From: Chloroflexia bacterium
Lineage (GTDB): Bacteria; Chloroflexota; Chloroflexia; Thermomicrobiales; UBA6265
Reading direction: 5' to 3'
DNA: 64,000 nucleotides
NCBI GenBank assembly: GCA_043427975.1
Contig: JBHWTK010000067.1
Span: 16,523 to 80,522 of the forward strand
In this document: positions 1 through 64,000 of the stretch, in pieces
Layout: each line of letters begins with the position of its first letter
Numbering within the stretch: the stretch's first letter is position 1
Notes under the pieces: model-generated
What the model saw: the letters and a program-made list of their open reading frames with translations, nothing else
The model's database searches: none
What the model was told of the DNA's origin: nothing
Position numbers and translations under genes: made by a program

Positions 1-1600
1 CGTTGCGCGTGTTGATGGCTTCCTTGCGCTTGGCGTCTTCGGCGGCGTGCTCCTCAGCCTCCTGAACCATGCGCTTGACTTCATCCTCGCTCAGGCCGGA
101 GCTGCCGGCGATGGTGATCTTCTGTTCCTTGCCTGTGGCGGTGTCCTTGGCGGTGACGTTGAGGATGCCATTGGCGTCGATATCAAAGGTCACCTCAATC
201 TTCGGCACACCACGCGGTGCGGGCGGAATTCCATCGAGGATAAAGCGGCCGAGACTCTTGTTATCGGTGGCCATCGGGCGCTCACCCTGCAACACGTTGA
301 TCTCTACCTGCGGCTGGCTGTCGCTGGCCGTGGTGAATGTCTGGCTCTTGCGGGCCGGGATGGTGGTATTGCGCTCGATTAGCGGTGTCGCCACACCACC
401 AAGCGTCTCGATCGCCAGGGTAAGCGGCGTCACGTCCAGCAGCAGGATGTCCTTGACATCGCCGCCGAGCACACCACCCTGGATGGCGGCACCAAGCGCC
501 ACAACTTCGTCCGGGTTGATGCCCTTGTGCGGCTCCTTGCCGAAGAAGTCCTGCACGGTCTTCTGAACAATCGGCATGCGGGTCTGGCCACCAACGAGCA
601 GGGCTTCGTCCACCTCGCTCTTGCTGAGGCCGGCATCCTTGAGGGCCGATTCCATCGGGCCCTTGGTGCGGTTCACCAGGTCACTGGTGAGCGATTCCAG
701 CTTGGAGCGCGTGAGGGTGATATTCAGATGCTTCGGACCGCTGGCATCGGCCGTAATAAACGGCAGGTTGATATCGGTCTGCTGGGTGCTGGAAAGCTCG
801 ATCTTGGCCTTCTCGGCAGCTTCCTTCAGGCGCTGGAGCGCCATGCGGTCGTTGCGGAGGTCAACGCCTTCCTGCTTCTTGAACTCGTCGGCGAGCCAGT
901 TAATGATCACCTGGTCGAAGTCGTCACCACCCAGGTGGGTATCACCATTGGTGGCGAGCACCTGGAAGACGCCCTCGCTGAGGTCGAGGATGGAGATATC
1001 GTAGGTACCACCACCAAGGTCGTACACAGCGATCTTCTCATCCTTGTCCTGCTTCTCAAGGCCGTAGGCCAGGGCGGAAGCGGTGGGCTCGTTGATAATG
1101 CGCAGCACCTCAAGGCCAGCGATCCGGCCAGCATCCTTGGTGGCATCGCGCTGTGAGTTATCGAAGTACGCCGGTACGGTAATCACGGCCTTGTCCACGG
1201 TTTCACCGAGGTAGGCTTCCGCGTCCGCCTTCATCTTCTGCAGGATCATCGCGCTGACTTCCTGCGGGCTGTACCACTTGTCGCCCATCTTCACCTGCAC
1301 GTCGCCGTTCGGGGCGGCCTGCAGTGCGTACGGCACAAGTTCCTTGTCCTTGGCGATAGCAGGGTCGTTGAACTTGCGACCAATGAACCGCTTCACCGAG
1401 AAAATGGTGTTATCCGGGTTGGTTACCGCTTGCCGGCGGGCAAACCGCCCCACCAGGCGCTCGCCGGAGTTGGTGAGGGCCACGACCGAGGGCGTAAGTC
1501 GCTCGCCTTCGGCGTTGGGGATCACCACCGGCTCGCCACCTTCAATGGTGGCCATTACCGAGTTGGTTGTTCCGAGGTCAATACCGATTGTTCGTCCCAT
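1..1600 (-). CDS. dnaK: Molecular chaperone DnaK (Hsp70), N-terminal ~533 aa; C-terminus runs off the left window edge
   Basis: Absent from the ORF track because there is no stop in the window. Reverse complement from ATG at 1600-1598 reads [22 protein letters not shown]...[20 protein letters not shown]...[12 protein letters not shown]...[22 protein letters not shown] lies upstream. Follows grpE. Confidence 0.95.
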
Positions 1601-57260: not shown

Positions 57261-58718
57261 CTACGGCAGATCCACCCGATATACGCCGGTGTCGGTGACC
57301 AGGTACAGCATGTTCCCTTCGAACCACGCGTTCCAGACGTTGCTGGCAGCCGGCAGGTACCTGGTACCGGCGCGGTCGAAGCAGGTGAACTCCTTCAGCG
57401 TCACACAGGCGTAATCCGAATTGGACGCCACCGCCAGCGGACTCATTTCAGGCTGGCGAACCGGATCCGTTTCCAGCATCACCCAGCCATTGGCATCCAG
57501 CCACACCAGCGCCGAGGCCGTATGGCCATGCTGGCCCAACAGGCGCAGCAGGAACGGCGCGCTGTTCCAGGTGTAGGTCGCCATGGCGATGGAGCCATCG
57601 GACGCGACATTGATGCGGCTGGATTGATCGAGTGCCCGCTCCCACACCACGCTGCCATCCGCCGGGTTCACCACCACCAGTGTCGTGAGCGCTCCCGAGC
57701 CAACATAGGTATCGGCCGCAACCAGCAGCCCGGCCGGAACGCTGAACATCTGCATGCTCACCGGGTGGGCCTGCTGGAACGACGCCGGCATGGTGAACTG
57801 CCGTACAGATGCGCCAGTGGTGAGGTTCAGCACCTCAATAGAGCCATCCACTTGCCCCAGGTACAGCTCCTCGCCGATATGCATCAGCGCCGGAGGCTGC
57901 ACGTAATTGTCCTCCCGAGATGCATAGAGGTCATACCCGGCCTGCCAGCGCATTTCGCCGCTGCTGCCATCGATTGCAACCAGCTTGCCTCCCAGCACAA
58001 TCACAGCGGTATCGCCTGCCATCATCACGGTTTCCCATCCGTGGACGACGTCCCATTCGGCCAGGGAATTGGTCCAGAGTTCTTCTCCGGTGTCGATGTT
58101 GTAGGCAGCCATTTCCTCCAGGCCAAATAATGAATTTGGATCGTTGTCCTTTGGTTCGCTGTACGTGATACCGATGATGACATCGTCTCCAAACAGGATG
58201 TGCCACATCTCGGGCACCTCTTGTTGCCACTGGACCGCGCCGGATGCCGGGTCATACGAGACCAGGTACGGCTGATCCGAGCCGGACATCGACGTGACAG
58301 CGATAAGGTGGTCTTCGTACATGTGGACCTGGCCCGCTGTACCAACGCCGGGCAGCATCTCGGCTGTCAGGGTGACATCGGGGCCGGGTGTAGCGCTGGC
58401 ATCGGCTGGCAACGTCGCGACCGCCTGGCTCGCGTACTGCGGCTCCAGCACCCTGGGTGCAAGTTGCACGACAGAAGCGAGCGCGAGCGCGAACACCACC
58501 AGTGCGGCCGCTGCGATGAAGAGCGGGTGTCGCCTGTCCGGTGCCGTCGCGTTCACAGATCGTCCCGACGGCGAAGCACCAATGATCGGCTGCACCGGGA
58601 CCGGTTTCGCGGGTGCTTCTGCCGCCATCCGTCGTCGCATCCGCTCTGCGAACGCGCTATCTGGCTCCATGGCCGAATCGAATGCCCCGTGAAATTGACG
58701 GAAATCGGTATCGTTCAT
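57261..58718 (-). CDS. Putative anti-sigma factor: cytoplasmic N-terminus, one TM, extracytoplasmic PQQ-like beta-propeller
   Basis: ATGA overlap with the upstream ECF sigma gene. TM segment is LFIAAAALVVFALALASV. Repeated ...G.V.W... blades are typical of PQQ-like propeller repeats. Confidence 0.6.
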   Translation of the reverse strand: MNDTDFRQFHGAFDSAMEPDSAFAERMRRRMAAEAPAKPVPVQPIIGASPSGRSVNATAPDRRHPLFIAAAALVVFALALASVVQLAPRVLEPQYASQAVATLPADASATPGPDVTLTAEMLPGVGTAGQVHMYEDHLIAVTSMSGSDQPYLVSYDPASGAVQWQQEVPEMWHILFGDDVIIGITYSEPKDNDPNSLFGLEEMAAYNIDTGEELWTNSLAEWDVVHGWETVMMAGDTAVIVLGGKLVAIDGSSGEMRWQAGYDLYASREDNYVQPPALMHIGEELYLGQVDGSIEVLNLTTGASVRQFTMPASFQQAHPVSMQMFSVPAGLLVAADTYVGSGALTTLVVVNPADGSVVWERALDQSSRINVASDGSIAMATYTWNSAPFLLRLLGQHGHTASALVWLDANGWVMLETDPVRQPEMSPLAVASNSDYACVTLKEFTCFDRAGTRYLPAASNVWNAWFEGNMLYLVTDTGVYRVDLP

Positions 58719-59296
58719 CGGTGGTCTCCATTGCGCTGCAACCAGATCGATCGGAAGGCGTTACGGGCACGGGCAAGCAGCGACTGAGTCGCCGATTCCG
58801 AGAGGAAGAGCGCCGCTGCGACCGCGGCGACGTCGCATCCATCGAGGTATTTGAGGACGATCGCTGCGCGGTAGCGCGGGTTGAGCTCGGCCAGGGTCGC
58901 GATCACTTCCTCGCGGACAGGCAGGGATTCGAGGTCGAGATCGGGCAGGCCGGGTTGGACGCCGGGGTCATCGTCGTCCACGCGCCGGCCAAACGCGGAT
59001 CTCTCACGGGTTTGGCGGCGGTAGTGGTCGATGAGCCGGTTGCGGGAGATATGGAACAGCCAGCGCATGCGGTCATCCGCACCTTCGGGCGCTGCGCCAG
59101 ACCGCACGGCGGCCAGCATGGTGTCCTGCGTCAGGTCTTCTGCCAGGGCGCGATCACCGCCCACCCGTGGGTAGAAGTACCCGTAGATACGCGGGATCGC
59201 CTCGGCCAGCGCGGCGGTCGGCGCGTGGTGAGGCGACGATTCGGCTTTCTCCTTCGTGGGGTTCAATACGATCGTTCCCGGCGCAGCAAGCTCCAT
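58715..59296 (-). CDS. ECF-type RNA polymerase sigma-70 factor
   Basis: Start moved to ATG 59296 (AAGGAG SD). Region 2 (AEDLTQDTMLAAV...WLFHISRNRLIDHYR) and region 4 (LNPRYRAAIVLKYLDG...SESATQSLLARAR). Confidence 0.85.
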   Translation of the reverse strand: MELAAPGTIVLNPTKEKAESSPHHAPTAALAEAIPRIYGYFYPRVGGDRALAEDLTQDTMLAAVRSGAAPEGADDRMRWLFHISRNRLIDHYRRQTRERSAFGRRVDDDDPGVQPGLPDLDLESLPVREEVIATLAELNPRYRAAIVLKYLDGCDVAAVAAALFLSESATQSLLARARNAFRSIWLQRNGDHR

Positions 59297-59492
59297 ATGC
59301 AGGTCTCCTTGCAAAGTAGAACGAAGCCGCGTCAGAAATCTGTCGGTTGACCCCAAATACGCCAGGTACATGGCATATCCAGAAATCTGCTGTGATTAGT
59401 AACAGGCTGACAGCAGTTTATTCTGGTCCTGCGGTATGCTTCGGGCAGGAGATCGATAAATTGGCAGGGTAATAGATCGGGGAAGAAATCTG

Positions 59493-60500
59493 ATGAAGCG
59501 AACGATAGTCTCGTTGTTGGCCGCAATGCTCGTTTGCGTTGTATCGGTGCAGCCAACTATCGCCCAAGCCGATGAAGGGTGTGAACCAGAGATCGAACAA
59601 CCCTACGCGTGCCGAACGTTCGCCTCCACATCACCTGGCGTGGCCGAGGTAACCATGCTGATGATTGTGGTAAGCGATCACCAAACAGCATCCCAGGCAG
59701 ACAGCTATGTCCTCGGAATGGAAGAAGCAATGGTTGATGCAGACGTTCCTCTACTCCGGCTTCGAGGTCTTCCATCCGAAATGGAATACGCCTATTCCTC
59801 CCTCACTTTGGAGGAGGATGGATCCTCAATGGGGTTGGCCATCCTTCTGGTTTCCGTTGAAAAATACGTGGTATCAATTTTCGCTGGCGGCGCCGCCGAG
59901 CCCAGCAGCAACGATCTGGTGAGCATTGTGGTCGAGATTGTAGATCGTGCCAACTCTAGTCATGCCACACTGTTCGACTTGCTCCCGAATGAGGACGATC
60001 TGCCCTATCGCATGTCTGTGTCAGTTGAGCGGACAACAGAATCCTCCAATAATGCCGGCACCAGGCGGTCTGGCAATACCAGTAACGGTATTACACGGAC
60101 GCCTCGAACCGGCTCCACATCCTCCAGCCGAAACACCACCTCAGGTGAATCTTCTGGAACAATAACCCGCACACCACGGACCGGATCAGCGAATACAAGC
60201 TCCGGTAGTTCCGGCACCCAGACAGGGAGCCTCCGAGTAGTGGATATAACAACAAAAGACGCTGGAATAGGTGACGGGACGATCTATGTTTACATCGAAC
60301 TGGAGAACGCCTCGAGCAAGGATTATGGTTACGTTCAGGTGGACTTGATATGTCGTGATAGTAGCGATCGCGTGGTAGCAACGGGCATTGCCAACGAGCT
60401 GGGACTGCCCGCTGGGGGAAGCACGGTTCTCACCGGCATCATCATGAGTGCTCCCGATTGCGTCAAGGTCCAGGCAAAGGTCAATCCCTTGTCCGACTAA
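59493..60500 (+). CDS. Secreted hypothetical protein with Ser/Thr/Gly/Arg-rich linker; locally AT-richer gene
   Basis: Signal MKRTIVSLLAAMLVCVVSVQPTIAQA. Duplicated ITRTPRTGS peptide (60090-60116 and 60162-60188). C-terminal beta-rich domain. Confidence 0.65.
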   Translation: MKRTIVSLLAAMLVCVVSVQPTIAQADEGCEPEIEQPYACRTFASTSPGVAEVTMLMIVVSDHQTASQADSYVLGMEEAMVDADVPLLRLRGLPSEMEYAYSSLTLEEDGSSMGLAILLVSVEKYVVSIFAGGAAEPSSNDLVSIVVEIVDRANSSHATLFDLLPNEDDLPYRMSVSVERTTESSNNAGTRRSGNTSNGITRTPRTGSTSSSRNTTSGESSGTITRTPRTGSANTSSGSSGTQTGSLRVVDITTKDAGIGDGTIYVYIELENASSKDYGYVQVDLICRDSSDRVVATGIANELGLPAGGSTVLTGIIMSAPDCVKVQAKVNPLSD

Positions 60501-60588: not shown

Positions 60589-60613
60589 GAGCCCGGGAAT
60601 AAAACCCGGGCTC
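60589..60613. terminator. Bidirectional hairpin terminator between convergent genes
   Basis: Perfect 9-bp stem GAGCCCGGG/CCCGGGCTC with loop AATAAAA. Abuts the ABC-F stop codon. Confidence 0.6.
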
Positions 60614-62313
60614 TACTTTTCCCGTTTCCTCACCGGTTCCGATGCGGCGGCGGGGTGGCGCAGGCCGAGGGTGAGCGGGGTGCCTTTCTCCGCGTTCTCG
60701 ACGGCATAGGTGTAGCCGCCCGGATAATCGCGCACGATGCCGTCCTCAATCGCGAGGATGCGGTTGCAGACCTTGTCCATGAAATAGCGATCATGCGAGA
60801 TGCTGATGATGGTGCCCTCGAACGCCAGCAGCGCTTCTTCAAGCTTCTCGACACTGGCGAGGTCGAGGTTATTGGTCGGTTCGTCCAGCACCAGCAGGTT
60901 GGCACCGCTCAGCATCATCAGTGCGATCTGCAGCCGGGCCCGTTCCCCACCGCTCAGGTTCTTCACCTGGTTCATCGCGTCAACACGATCAAAGCCCATA
61001 CCCACCAGCGCGCTGAGCGCCTGCTGTTCATTGAGCGCCTTCACCTTGCGCACGAGTTCTAGCGGCTGGGAATTGCCATCCAGCGATGCCTGCATCTGGT
61101 CGTACCACGCCATCTGGATACTCGCGCCGATGCCAATCCGGCCGGAGGAAGGCGCGAGTTCGCCGGTGAGGCACTTCATCAGGCTGGTTTTACCGGCACC
61201 GTTCGGCCCGATGATGCCTACCCGCTCTCCATGCCGCACCAGCACATCGAACGGTTGCAGCACAGTGCGGTCGCCATAGCGGATGCTGACGTTGCTGCCC
61301 GTGACCACGTTCGTGGATCCCCGTTCCGCCTGGAAATCGATATTGATGTTGCGGCGCTGCATTTGCGGCCATGGCTGGGCATCGAGCCGGGCGCGTTCCT
61401 CCGCCATTCGGTTGCGTTGCTGCTCGGCGCGGGTAGCGAACTTCGGATTCTGCCGCGCCCACTGGGTCAGTTCCTCGGCGCAGGCCTTCAGCTTCAGGTA
61501 TTCGCGTTCGGCCAGCTCGCGGAGTTCCAGTTCACGTTCAAGCCGATCCCGCTTCTGCTGCTGGTAGGCGCTGTAGTTGCCGGTGTACCGGCGGATGCGG
61601 CCATCCTCCAGTTCAACGATCGAGTTGGCGACCCGGTCGATCATGTAGCGGTCGTGCGAGATCATGCACACCGCGCCGCGATACTGCGTGTTGAGCCAAT
61701 CCTCCAGCCAGGCGCGGGCATCGACATCGAAGTGGTTATCTGGCTCGTCCAGCAGCAGCACATCCGGCGGGTCCAGCAGGAAGCGGGCGACATCCACCAG
61801 CTTCCGTTCGCCACCGGAGAGCGTGCCGATTGATTGGTCCCAGCGGTGTTCCGGAATATGCAATTCGCCGAGCACCTGCTGCAACTGATCGGTGGCATCG
61901 TTGCCGGCGAGTGCGTCGAGCCGATCCAGCAAGGCCGCCTGGGTGTCCAGCAGCGCTGCCATCTCGTCGTCAGTCATCGGCTGGCCAAACCGTTCCTCAA
62001 TTTCCAGGAGCTGGTATTCCACGCTCTCGGAATCGCCGATTGCCTCGCCGAGCACTTCGCGAACCGTCTTGTGGGCCGGGAGTGTCGATTCCTGCTGCAG
62101 GTATCCGATGCTGATGCCATTGGCGTGCGTGATTGCTCCAGACTGCGGGTGCAACTCCTTCGTCAGCAGGCGAAAGAGGGTGGACTTGCCCGTGCCATTC
62201 TCTCCGATCAACGCGAGGCGGTCGCCAGACTGGATGGTGAATGAAAGTCCCTGGAAAAGCTGGTTACCGCCGTGGGCATAGGCGATATCCGCAGCCTGAA
62301 TGAGAAGTACCAT
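60613..62313 (-). CDS. ABC-F family ATPase (two NBDs, no TM domain; ribosome-associated type)
   Basis: 566 aa. Two Walker A motifs (GENGTGKST, GPNGAGKTS), two signatures (LSGGERK, LSGGERAR) and a charged interdomain linker (QQQKRDRLERELELRELAEREYLKLK...). Confidence 0.9.
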   Translation of the reverse strand: MVLLIQAADIAYAHGGNQLFQGLSFTIQSGDRLALIGENGTGKSTLFRLLTKELHPQSGAITHANGISIGYLQQESTLPAHKTVREVLGEAIGDSESVEYQLLEIEERFGQPMTDDEMAALLDTQAALLDRLDALAGNDATDQLQQVLGELHIPEHRWDQSIGTLSGGERKLVDVARFLLDPPDVLLLDEPDNHFDVDARAWLEDWLNTQYRGAVCMISHDRYMIDRVANSIVELEDGRIRRYTGNYSAYQQQKRDRLERELELRELAEREYLKLKACAEELTQWARQNPKFATRAEQQRNRMAEERARLDAQPWPQMQRRNINIDFQAERGSTNVVTGSNVSIRYGDRTVLQPFDVLVRHGERVGIIGPNGAGKTSLMKCLTGELAPSSGRIGIGASIQMAWYDQMQASLDGNSQPLELVRKVKALNEQQALSALVGMGFDRVDAMNQVKNLSGGERARLQIALMMLSGANLLVLDEPTNNLDLASVEKLEEALLAFEGTIISISHDRYFMDKVCNRILAIEDGIVRDYPGGYTYAVENAEKGTPLTLGLRHPAAASEPVRKREK

Positions 62314-62331
62314 GATGCGAAATCCCCGCAG

Positions 62332-62370
62332 ACAAACAAAAATCCCTCCGACAAATGCGTCGAAGGGAGG
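62332..62370 (-). terminator. Intrinsic terminator 18 nt upstream of the ABC-F start codon (candidate attenuator)
   Basis: Minus RNA reads (CC)UCCCUUCGAC-GCAUUU-GUCGGAGGGA (10 bp) followed by UUUUUGUUUGU. The single non-Watson-Crick pair is G.U on the minus RNA and C.A on the plus, which makes the structure strand-specific. Confidence 0.7.
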
Positions 62371-62411
62371 TCAAACACCCTGATTTGATGCTGATCGTTA
62401 GCCAACGCTCG

Positions 62412-62492
62412 TTACATCAACCAGGCACACTGCTCCCATATAGTGGCCGTTCGTGGTGAAACCGCGATGGTGGCTTTCATAAAGAACTGCAT
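62412..62492 (-). CDS. Candidate leader peptide uORF (26 codons)
   Basis: GGGGA lies 5 nt upstream of the ATG. Sequence is MQFFMKATIAVSPRTATIWEQCAWLM. It contains GGGAGCAGUGUG in frame as (W)EQC(A). Confidence 0.4.
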   Translation of the reverse strand: MQFFMKATIAVSPRTATIWEQCAWLM

Positions 62493-62522
62493 CTTGATCC
62501 CCGGTAGCGATAACCTGCGCCT

Positions 62523-62551
62523 ATGCTACGGGATGGGCCGGCCGGGGTCAA
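62523..62551 (-). promoter_or_regulatory. Candidate promoter of the ABC-F leader
   Basis: Minus strand reads TTGACC-N17-TAGCAT, immediately after the sodC terminator. Confidence 0.5.
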
Positions 62552-62585
62552 CACAAACGCCTGGCACACCTTTGTGCCGGGCGTT
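62549..62585 (-). terminator. Terminator-like hairpin after sodC
   Basis: AACGCC(C)GGCAC-AAAGGU-GUGCC(A)GGCGUU followed by UGUGUUG, about 30 nt after the stop at 62617. Confidence 0.5.
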
Positions 62586-62616
62586 CAGTTTGATCACACT
62601 CGCCGCTGAGGTGTGC

Positions 62617-63285
62617 CTAGTTCTCCGGCGTCGCTGCCGGGGAAGCAACTGGCGAGGCTACCGGTGTACCGGTCAGTCCTGCCGCGGTCGGGAAGAGGAT
62701 CGCGCAGGCCCAGCGATCACCGCTGTTGCCGGATGGATCGGTGGCAAGGTCATCCTCGCCAGCATGGATCACGATTGCGCTGCCATTCTCGCCGGCAAGG
62801 GAGTTCGGCTGGTCGCGCTCCATGGTGAGCTTCTCGGCCAGCACTTCATGCTCGAAATTGCCGTCTCCGTCCGCCTCCAGGTTCCCCAGATCACCAGCGT
62901 GGCTCGGGTCGGCGTTGATATCGCCATGGGTCTCTTCGGTCGGGTTAAAGTGGCCACCAGCAGAATCGAACGCATCGGCGGGGTCGCACACGCCACGCTC
63001 ATGGACGTGAATGCCGTACTTGCCCTCTGCGATGCCGGTGCCATCCTCGCTCTTGATCGAGAACCAGACACCGTTCCCCTCTTCGTCCTGCCACACCTCA
63101 GCCACAGCTACGGTATTGCCTTCAGCGTCGATAAAGGGGACGTCCTGCTTGACGGGCAGATCGGCAATCGGAGTGCCCATGCTGTCCTCAGTAGCCGGAG
63201 TCGATTCCTGCGCCATGGATGCAGCACCACCAAGTACCATCGATGAAGCAAGGATGCCGGATAGCAAGGTTTTGCGAAGTTGCAT
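62617..63285 (-). CDS. sodC: Cu/Zn superoxide dismutase, secreted
   Basis: Start moved to ATG 63285 (signal MQLRKTLLSGILASSMVLGGAASMAQ). Motifs GIHVHERGVC, GGHFNP, HAGDLGN and IVIHAGEDD. Pro/Thr/Ala-rich C-terminal tail ending ATPEN. Confidence 0.9.
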   Translation of the reverse strand: MQLRKTLLSGILASSMVLGGAASMAQESTPATEDSMGTPIADLPVKQDVPFIDAEGNTVAVAEVWQDEEGNGVWFSIKSEDGTGIAEGKYGIHVHERGVCDPADAFDSAGGHFNPTEETHGDINADPSHAGDLGNLEADGDGNFEHEVLAEKLTMERDQPNSLAGENGSAIVIHAGEDDLATDPSGNSGDRWACAILFPTAAGLTGTPVASPVASPAATPEN

Positions 63286-63405
63286 AGCAATTGAGTCCTT
63301 TGCTGAGGCAGAACCAGTTCCCACCATCGTTGGGACCGACAGGGCAAGTCGCGTGCCATGCCGTCGATTCCTGCACCACAGGCGTTAATAGCCTTGGCAC
63401 TCAGG

Positions 63406-63473: not shown

Positions 63474-64000
63474 CTAGTTGGCAGGCGTCGCCTCAGGCGT
63501 ACCCGTGCCCTCAACCGGCGCGAAGATCACGCCGCAGGCTTCGCGGTCGCCGCTTTCGCCAGACGGATCGGTGGTGAGGTCATCCTCACCGGCATGGATG
63601 ATGATGGCGCTGCCATCTGCATCGTTCAGGGAGTTCTCGGCATCGGGCTGGAGCGTGATCTTCTCCAGCTTCACCTTGTGCTCGAACGAGCCATCATCGT
63701 TGACGGTCATGTTGCCAAGGTCGCCGCCGTGGCTCGGGTCGGCATTGGCATCGCCGTGGGATTCATCCGTAGGGTTGAAATGACCACCGGCCGAATCAAA
63801 CGCGGCATCGTCATCGCACACGCCACTCTCGTGGATATGCACGCCGTGCTGGCCCGGTGAAAGCACGGCCTCGCCGCTGCTCTTGATCACCAGCGTGACG
63901 CCGCTTTCATCCTGCCAGAGGGTGGCATAACCAACAAAGTCGCCATCCACCGTCTTGATCGCCTTGGGTTCAACAGTGATCCGAGTCACGGGCGTGGCGT
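63474..64000 (-). CDS. sodC: Cu/Zn superoxide dismutase paralog, N-terminus off the right window edge
   Basis: Motifs GVHIHESGVC, GGHFNP, HGGDLGN and IIIHAGEDD. The frame stays open to position 64000, so the GTG at 63989 in the track is probably internal. Tail ends ATPAN. Confidence 0.88.
   Translation of the reverse strand, partial: ATPVTRITVEPKAIKTVDGDFVGYATLWQDESGVTLVIKSSGEAVLSPGQHGVHIHESGVCDDDAAFDSAGGHFNPTDESHGDANADPSHGGDLGNMTVNDDGSFEHKVKLEKITLQPDAENSLNDADGSAIIIHAGEDDLTTDPSGESGDREACGVIFAPVEGTGTPEATPAN

Follow-up and report, generated by a model that had tools for sequence, protein, structure and literature searches.

Introduction

Genes for antibiotic-resistance proteins of the ABC-F family are, as a rule, regulated through an open reading frame upstream of them (uORF) together with an intrinsic terminator (PMC9226507, PMC10201436, PMC12421871). 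In the leaders of vmlR, cplR, vga(A), lmrC, msrD, tiaA and are5sc, ribosome stalling on the uORF switches the terminator to an antiterminator (PMC9226507, PMC10201436, PMC12421871). Such control has been documented for resistance factors of Firmicutes and Actinobacteria, in which the tiny leader peptides hint at the drugs that are sensed. These leaders consist, in this order, of a constitutive promoter, a short translated uORF, an intrinsic terminator and the ABC-F gene, and their uORFs have only 3-9 codons (MIN, MRI, MK[L/Q], MAGN, MLV, MVGDDDISG), with the ribosome stalling at or near the start (PMC10201436, PMC12421871). Here we analyze a leader with the same order of elements in a 64,000-nucleotide stretch of DNA from a Chloroflexia bacterium of the Thermomicrobiales (contig JBHWTK010000067.1), which is referred to as the window and is numbered from its first letter. 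The leader lies on the minus strand between the stop codon of a sodC gene (62617) and the start codon of an ABC-F gene (62313). Comparison with 20 further loci supports the view that it is a real, complete and previously undescribed attenuator-type leader of the ABC-F gene. The element is very probably a leader-peptide attenuator. As a whole, it is best explained as a ribosome-dependent transcription attenuator that controls the gene of an EttA-like ABC-F translation factor, a view that we favor with reasonable but not high confidence, while the particular stall site and antiterminator proposed below are tentative suggestions from modeling to which we give slightly less than even weight.

Other attenuators share parts of this organization. 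In the whiB7 leader, efficient translation of the uORF leads to termination, and slowed translation or stalling leads to read-through (PMC10274678). The whiB7/wblC leaders of Actinobacteria, which like the present hosts are high-G+C soil bacteria, have a longer uORF followed by a Rho-independent terminator, as well as the logic proposed here. They differ in controlling a transcription factor and in having a widely varying, merely Ala-rich uORF that acts as a general sensor of translation stress and amino acid supply, whereas one specific motif is conserved in the present leader. The trp, his and thr attenuators have the same geometry, with a stall site placed immediately before the antiterminator's 5' strand and a stop codon inside the structured region. 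However, the present uORF contains no run of codons for a single amino acid, the regulated gene is not biosynthetic, and there is no clear 1:2 anti-antiterminator hairpin: a UCUCC...GGGAGA hairpin is predicted for two leaders only (L009 and L011), and the sequence of a third (L013) allows a similar pairing to be read. The arrest peptides of erm leaders (ErmAL1 'IAVV', ErmCL 'IFVI'), of which IAVV is the stalling motif of ErmAL1 (PMC12698558), likewise carry a short conserved hydrophobic motif within the leader peptide. The erm leaders differ in that they act mainly on translation of a methyltransferase and respond to macrolides.

The initial annotation of this DNA held that known ABC-F leaders have exactly this layout. 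The order of the elements is shared, but other features differ: the uORF has 26-36 codons instead of 3-9, contains an invariant internal motif of eight residues, and has no sequence similarity to the uORFs of resistance genes; the terminator leaves the ribosome-binding site of the ABC-F gene free; and the ABC-F protein passes no resistance-family cut-off. We file the element as a new leader family of a known regulator type.

Organization and conservation of the leader

With the ABC-F protein of the window as query, 21 genome loci were obtained, the near ones all belonging to metagenome-assembled genomes of Thermomicrobiales/Chloroflexia. In twelve of the 14 close loci (protein 59-87% identical), the region upstream of the ABC-F gene contains a homologous uORF and, after it, a hairpin with a T-run. 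Metagenome contigs were also scanned with a DNA pattern built from the uORF only; four contigs were returned, and all four carry a terminator and an ABC-F gene downstream. Further homologue look-ups added four leaders, two of the standard form (L034 and L038) and two of a variant form (L026 and L035). In L034, the ABC-F protein is 93% identical to that of the window and the same leader is present. Together with the window, the leader set thus comprises 21 leaders, several of them closely related. Terminator presence and ribosome positions were evaluated in all 21; the counts for promoters, folds and segment stability refer to 19 leaders, and the codon table to 17 sequences.

The order promoter-uORF-terminator-ABC-F is kept in all 21 loci, and the ABC-F protein of the 20 further loci is 54-93% identical. 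Conservation of the uORF and the hairpin in related genomes had been named at the outset as a check on the proposal, and both were found in the 20 further loci. Each of the 20 further leader loci contains a single copy of a 14-nt core, GGGAGNAGTGYGYC, which always lies on the ABC-F strand and is absent from the 18 other loci compared. The window, too, has only one copy of the core, where chance would give 0 matches. By comparison, the window taken alone offers little: neither promoter-like sites (4 versus 1.4±1.1 expected) nor terminator-like sites (1 versus 3.0±2.0 expected from shuffles) are significant in it, and the whole 221-nt leader folds no better than its shuffles (z = -0.37). As these window statistics are insufficient, the significance of the leader derives from the comparison across loci.

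At the Rfam gathering score there was no match in the whole window, and the region 61800-63000 yielded only chance-level hits (E above 2). Neither this leader nor any other Chloroflexota ABC-F leader is described in the literature that we searched on ABC-F leaders and Chloroflexota, which agrees with the view of the initial annotation that the leader is an undescribed one. In a neighbor-joining tree, most leader-bearing genes fall into one clade; L026 and L035, with their variant leader, form a separate small clade. No leader was found upstream of the ABC-F gene in L007, L010, L027-L033, L036 and L037, which represent sister clades and more distant relatives. The 15-nt RNA block and the peptide motif described below provide a simple signature for annotating the leader in metagenomes, whichever mechanism applies.

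All elements of the leader in the window are on the minus strand. The promoter, identified by scanning and by its conservation in relatives, consists of a -35 hexamer TTGACC (62546..62551) and, after a 17-nt spacer, a -10 hexamer TAGCAT (62523..62528), which together match the consensus at 9 of 12 positions; transcription is predicted from this to start near 62516. A promoter of the form TTGAC[ACGT], 17-18 nt, TAnnnT is present in 19 of the 19 leaders examined, with -10 hexamers TACGAT, TAGGAT, TATGCT or TACCAT in the orthologues at the same spacing. It precedes the uORF by 40-70 nt in most leaders and by 30 nt in the window, and in several loci it directly follows the terminator of the upstream gene.

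The uORF (62412..62492) was found by an open reading frame scan. It starts with an ATG at 62492, has 26 codons plus a TAA stop codon (62414..62412), encodes MQFFMKATIAVSPRTATIWEQCAWLM, and is preceded by a Shine-Dalgarno-like GGGGA (62498..62502) 5 nt upstream of the ATG. A homologous uORF exists in the 20 other loci; across the family it is 26-36 codons long, starts with ATG or GTG, and in the other leaders follows a purine-rich GGAG/GAGG-like sequence 4-10 nt ahead of the start codon. Downstream, a terminator scan recovered an intrinsic terminator with the stem-loop TCCCTTCGAC-GCATTT-GTCGGAGGGA (62343..62368) and the U-tract TTTTTGTTTGT (62332..62342), which ends 18 nt upstream of the ABC-F ATG. 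Its stem has 10 pairs (11 as counted by the scan), one of which is U.G. The Shine-Dalgarno-like GGGGA of the ABC-F gene (62323..62327) lies 3' of the terminator and is not sequestered; GGAG-like sequences also stand before the ABC-F start codon elsewhere. The regulated gene (60613..62313), identified by the open reading frame scan and by protein models, encodes an ABC-F ATPase of 566 amino acids.

The promoter, the uORF with its Shine-Dalgarno sequence and the terminator with its 10-bp stem had all been proposed in the initial annotation, and each was reproduced here by reading the sequence and by scanning. The same applies to the proposal that the structure is specific to the ABC-F mRNA sense, as the U-tract exists on the minus strand only and the U.G pair would become C.A on the plus strand. 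A helix TTGATG/CATCAA (62420..62415 and 62390..62385), which had been placed astride the uORF stop codon, is present in the minimum-energy fold, with the refinement that it forms the top of an irregular hairpin of greater length. As folded from single sequences, this hairpin extends from GGGAG to CUCCC (62365..62437), with the uORF stop codon near its apex.

The leader peptide and the W-E-x-C-A block

The consensus leader peptide is [FIY][FY]xK[AS][TI]IAxSP-x5-WE[QKE]CA, followed by 3-8 variable residues. In the window, the eight-residue motif K[AS][TI]IAxSP reads K-A-T-I-A-V-S-P (codons at 62454..62477). All 17 sequences have the same residues K, I, S and P in the motif, encoded by varying codons: Lys is AAA in 11 and AAG in 6, Ser is TCA in 7 and TCG in 10, and Pro is CCA in 9 and CCG in 8 sequences. 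Even the second Ala of the motif uses four codons (GCG 8, GCC 6, GCT 1, GCA 1). Over 11 motif codons, there are 424 synonymous versus 132 non-synonymous pairwise differences. Because the residues are kept while the codons vary, the codon comparison indicates that K[AS][TI]IAxSP is under purifying selection at the peptide level, which in turn implies that the uORF is probably translated. Invariant residues with variable codons are the signature expected of nascent-peptide arrest sequences. That a single specific peptide is so sharply conserved speaks against a sensor of a purely general kind.

A different pattern is seen five codons further on, a spacing between the Pro and W codons that is the same in every leader. 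The codons for W-E-x-C-A form a block, UGGGAGNAGUGYGCC (TGGGAGCAGTGTGCC at 62424..62438 in the window), in which Glu is always encoded by GAG (17 of 17) and Ala by GCC (16 of 16), the middle codon invariably reads NAG, and even the base preceding TGG is always A (17/17). L006 (about 180..240) has lost 1 nt between S-P and W, so that W-E-x-C-A is no longer in frame (…KSIIAISPNSGRHGRSVPCS*), yet the RNA block, UGGGAGGAGUGUGCC, is kept; this frameshift is either a genuine variant or an assembly error. L001 reads G-E-Q-C-V (W to G, A to V) yet keeps GGGAG. The variant leaders L026 (about 1290..1400, MRVTFFHLIGYRFKSGIWETSWEKCA…) and L035 (about 330..450, MAQQMFFTLIGYRYKGATRDTTWEKCA…) have the same terminator type and a different N-terminal motif, FFxLIGYRxK, and WEKCA with its RNA block is the only part that they have in common with the main family. 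As the nucleotides are fixed beyond what the peptide needs and all of these variants keep the RNA, we read the W-E-x-C-A block as at least partly an RNA element and the K..P motif as a peptide element.

The A before the W codon creates a conserved out-of-frame AUG (A-UGG, 62436..62439 in the window) in all leaders but one. In the window, this AUG would open an overlapping frame of 13 codons, and no Shine-Dalgarno-like sequence stands ahead of it.

These data bear on an alternative of the erm/vmlR type, in which the ribosome is arrested at W-E-x-C-A or at the end of the uORF and melts the 5' strand of the stop-spanning hairpin, so that the freed 3' strand pairs, as the antiterminator, with the 5' arm of the terminator, an arrangement that the initial annotation implied. 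Within the peptide, W-E-x-C-A is conserved most widely, and it is common to both leader variants. Arrest peptides such as SecM and TnaC often combine a site near the catalytic center with residues 10-17 positions upstream in the tunnel, and K[AS][TI]IAxSP, at 6-13 residues before W, would fit the tunnel part of such a peptide. However, the RNA sequence is kept in L006, where W-E-x-C-A is out of frame, and in L001, where both W and A are gone, and GAG and GCC are invariant beyond any requirement of the peptide. The folds described in the next section speak to this alternative as well.

Two resemblances of the motif are noted as leads only. I-A-[VIMT]-S resembles the erm(A) L1 stalling motif I-A-V-V, and Ala, Thr and Ser at alternate motif positions are the contexts that, under published context rules, phenicols and oxazolidinones favor.

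Folding of the leader RNA and the proposed mechanism

A hairpin followed by a T-run is present in 21 of 21 leaders, with hairpin energies of -14 to -21 kcal/mol in the 19 that were folded. Conservation is seen at the foot of the terminator, where (C)UCCCUU pairs with AAGGG(A), and the upper stem shows compensatory variants (CGAC/GUCG, GAUGA/UCAUC, CAGC/GCUG and CGGC/GCCG). On one alignment (A1), 91.9% of the terminator cells are paired, compensatory changes occur at 5 of the 10 pairs, and the covariation score of 0.275 exceeds those of all 500 shuffles and of all slid registers. Covariation of both the terminator and the antiterminator helices had been suggested as a check in the initial annotation; it is borne out for the terminator, but consensus folding finds none for the antiterminator.

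The 5' arm of the terminator (GACCUCCCUU, 62359..62370) resembles the anti-Shine-Dalgarno 3' end of 16S rRNA, and the 3' arm GGAGGG (62343..62352) and the GGGAG of the block (62433..62437) are Shine-Dalgarno-like. A role of the 3' arm GGAGGG as the ribosome-binding site of the ABC-F gene was considered and rejected, since it is 30-60 nt before the start codon and a separate Shine-Dalgarno-like sequence exists.

In transcripts cut before the 3' arm of the terminator, the GGGAG of the block pairs with a downstream CUCCC in 18 of 19 folds, and in 15 of 19 leaders this helix includes the first 3-4 nt of the terminator 5' arm. The pairing continues upward into the irregular hairpin, the 5' strand of which is the rest of the uORF with the stop codon near the apex. 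The segment from W to CUCCC is 70-78 nt long in 18 of 19 leaders and more stable than its dinucleotide shuffles in 19 of 19 (z -0.6 to -4.1, mean -1.9), and forcing GGGAG:CUCCC in the full leader costs 0-6.6 kcal/mol. When a ribosome is modeled at the Pro codon, 20 of 21 leaders have part of the terminator 5' arm occupied; when it is modeled over the block, 10 of 21 have this arm almost free, with 0-2 nt paired.

Most likely, the leader switches the ABC-F gene on when translation is disturbed. From the comparisons above, we infer that the uORF is translated, that a stall site lies in its motif, that GGGAG:CUCCC may function as an antiterminator, and that an inducing signal may act through them, as follows. 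Transcription would start at the conserved sigma-70-type promoter, and by default most transcripts would end at about 62332, ahead of the ABC-F gene. K[AS][TI]IAxSP would be the sensor, at which the ribosome slows or stalls if translation is impaired, whether by a compound that targets the ribosome or by shortage of a factor needed to pass the motif. Because Pro and the block are always five codons apart, the RNA covered by a ribosome that holds Ser or Pro in its P-site would reach almost to GGGAG, and the block would thereby be left uncovered. The free block, as 5' strand of the antiterminator, might then fold with the downstream strand, and its basal helix GGGAG:CUCCC would take the first 3-4 nt of the terminator 5' arm; with the foot of the terminator thus held, termination would be lowered and polymerase could read into the ABC-F gene. 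A smoothly translating ribosome would instead cover the block and proceed up to the stop codon near the apex, so that the 5' strand stays unwound and the terminator forms.

The signal may be: a ribosome-targeting compound that stalls the ribosome in the motif's context; translation stress in general, as with whiB7; or an intrinsic stall that is relieved by the ABC-F protein itself, giving feedback control. If the peptide is a drug sensor, it would represent an undescribed context-specific stalling motif and would point to antibiotic pressure on soil Thermomicrobiales.

Several observations weigh against this mechanism. The antiterminator is weak, as it overlaps only 3-4 nt of a terminator arm of 9-11 nt, and in L006, L008 and L022 the best GGGAG:CUCCC register abuts the terminator without overlap. 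The terminator is favored at equilibrium in every leader, whatever the placement of the ribosome. GGGAG and CUCCC are both invariant and hence provide no covariation, and the chance of a 5-nt complement between two short blocks is, by our own estimate, roughly 0.1. In a fixed register, the pair next to GGGAG:CUCCC holds in only 10 of 19 leaders (G:C in 5 of 5, A:U in 5 of 9 and C:G in 0 of 5). RNAalifold on MAFFT alignments of all leaders and of two subgroups recovers only the terminator and a small local GGG...CCC hairpin, not the long hairpin; alignment by sequence fails in mid-leader because this part is too variable in length. The hairpin could also form without any stall if the terminating ribosome leaves the stop codon fast. 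Finally, L007 has no leader yet is nested inside the leader clade, and the closely related L010 has none either; with such close relatives of leader-bearing genes lacking a leader, attenuator control is dispensable.

An equilibrium switch was rejected, as the terminator is favored by 7-16 kcal/mol over structures in which its 3' arm is blocked, and the basal-pair probability stays near 1. Since the terminator wins at equilibrium for all ribosome positions, any switch must be kinetic. Direct occlusion of the terminator by the ribosome was also rejected, because the stop codon is 29-46 nt ahead of the terminator arm.

Regarding the erm/vmlR-type alternative, in which arrest at W-E-x-C-A or the uORF end would free a strand that captures the terminator arm, the hairpin spanning the stop codon is found in every leader. 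However, the 3' strand of this hairpin is pyrimidine-rich like the 5' arm of the terminator and is not complementary to it. Moreover, when the block is masked by the ribosome, the terminator arm is left nearly free in the 10 of 21 leaders mentioned above and the probability of the terminator is near 1. Together with the variants that keep the RNA sequence and lose the peptide, this makes arrest at W-E-x-C-A an improbable explanation. The pairing geometry is a better fit to logic of the whiB7 or trp type, with the stall at K[AS][TI]IAxSP and GGGAG left free, than to that of the erm type.

The regulated ABC-F protein

The ABC-F protein has two ABC_tran domains and an ABC_tran_Xtn domain and no membrane domain, and in its translation both sets of Walker A, signature and Walker B motifs are intact. 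It passes the generic NCBIfam model ribo_prot_ABC_F (NF000355) only (419.9 bits versus a cut-off of 380). The named resistance models (Msr, Vga, Lsa, Sal, OptrA, CplR and the producer-type TlrC/CarA/OleB/SrmB) all failed, with 174-310 bits versus 680-1450, as did the EttA equivalog models (NF008775, 411.3 versus 599; TIGR03719, 405 versus 806.75) and the Uup model. The closest solved relative is EttA (298 bits over 521 aligned residues), with which the protein shares two intact nucleotide-binding domains, the arm insertion and a W-x-R-Q linker tip, although it scores below the EttA equivalog cut-off and its inter-domain linker is about 10 residues longer.

The linkers of ARE1-5 proteins are about 30 residues longer than that of EttA, an extension that is not required for ARE7 and OptrA (PMC6723617). 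The linker of the present protein falls short of this extension, and the leader-less sister clades share its length and, nearly unchanged, its tip (LTQWARQNPKFA[ST]RAE). The protein thus looks like a lineage-wide EttA-related factor, as judged from its sequence and that of its relatives. In the initial annotation, it was suggested to be an inducible ribosome-protection factor, by comparison with resistance genes of the vmlR, msr, vga and lsa types. A resistance factor of this type is not supported: the named models fail, the linker is short, leader-less sisters share the linker, and there is no biosynthetic cluster nearby. A role in antibiotic resistance, which is supported by none of the membership tests, is possible because resistance factors with a short linker exist. 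We know of no attenuator leader for ettA. The present leader extends ABC-F attenuation to Chloroflexota and to a housekeeping-looking factor of the EttA type, with an unusually long and sharply conserved leader peptide.

The nature of the protein bears on the feedback option, in which no drug is involved: K[AS][TI]IAxSP would be an intrinsic arrest sequence relieved by the ABC-F protein itself, so that scarcity of the factor would lead to stalling and read-through and abundance to termination. This would resemble the SecM-SecA and MifM-YidC principle, here applied to a translation factor. Consistent with it, the protein is EttA-like rather than resistance-like; the shared linker and tip in leader-less sister clades give it the appearance of a core factor of the whole lineage; and the neighboring genes are ordinary, differ between loci and include no biosynthetic cluster. 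The last two residues of the motif are Ser-Pro, with Pro being a poor peptidyl acceptor. It is also specific and invariant, unlike the variable whiB7 uORF (PMC10274678), and resistance ABC-F proteins are known to feed back on their own leaders (PMC12421871). However, the second leader variant, with FFxLIGYRxK, has a different peptide, so that two different substrates would be needed, and L007, though nested in the leader clade, and L010 manage without a leader. Also against it, to our knowledge no non-resistance ABC-F protein is controlled by a leader stall that the factor relieves. On balance, we regard such feedback as rather unlikely. If true, the leader would be a sensor of cellular ABC-F activity, and its motif would identify a substrate sequence that is natural to an EttA-like ABC-F subfamily. 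A defined natural substrate is the chief question still open for this protein family.

Gene neighborhood

The ABC-F gene is the only conserved neighbor of the leader; the upstream genes are ordinary and differ between loci. Self-resistance within a biosynthetic gene cluster was considered and rejected, since the neighbors are sodC, an ECF sigma factor gene, and genes for a PQQ-like beta-propeller protein, a peptidase and MoeA.

The neighborhood also bears on the idea that the terminated leader RNA, or the peptide of 26-33 residues, has a function of its own (as a small RNA, a small protein or the precursor of a modified peptide), its position before the ABC-F gene being incidental. The peptide is conserved and contains Cys, Ser and Thr, a terminated transcript of roughly 185 nt would be made, and trans-acting leader peptides and attenuator RNAs are known (peTrpL/rnTrpL; PMC7298713). 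With the ABC-F gene as the sole conserved neighbor amid upstream genes that vary by locus, however, the position hardly looks incidental. No modification enzyme or transporter gene is found nearby, the C-terminal half of the peptide varies in both length and sequence, and the constant spacing between the block and the terminator (70-78 nt in 18/19) argues for a function in cis. A product acting in trans is therefore very unlikely, and control of the ABC-F gene in cis by attenuation is preferred.

Directly upstream of the leader in the window are two tandem Cu/Zn superoxide dismutase (Sod_Cu) genes (62617..63327 and 63474..63989, both on the minus strand), and the terminator hairpin of the first of them (about 62583..62558) runs into the -35 hexamer of the leader. 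In L034 and L038, too, the leader comes after a Sod_Cu gene, so that the synteny sodC-leader-ABC-F is common to part of the clade.

On the other side, an open reading frame of 335 residues (59493..60500, plus strand) has no Pfam match, a signal-peptide-like N-terminus and Ser/Thr/Gly-rich repeats (…TRTPRTGS…). It fills the gap of about 1.2 kb between the ABC-F gene and the gene for an ECF-type sigma factor, a gap that in L034, the closest relative, measures about 130 nt, which means either an insertion in the window or a deletion in L034. The sigma factor gene (58715..59371) lies downstream of the ABC-F gene on the same (minus) strand and is followed by a PQQ_2 beta-propeller gene (57261..58718, minus strand), the two overlapping at their stop and start codons; the same pair is likewise found downstream of the ABC-F gene in L034.

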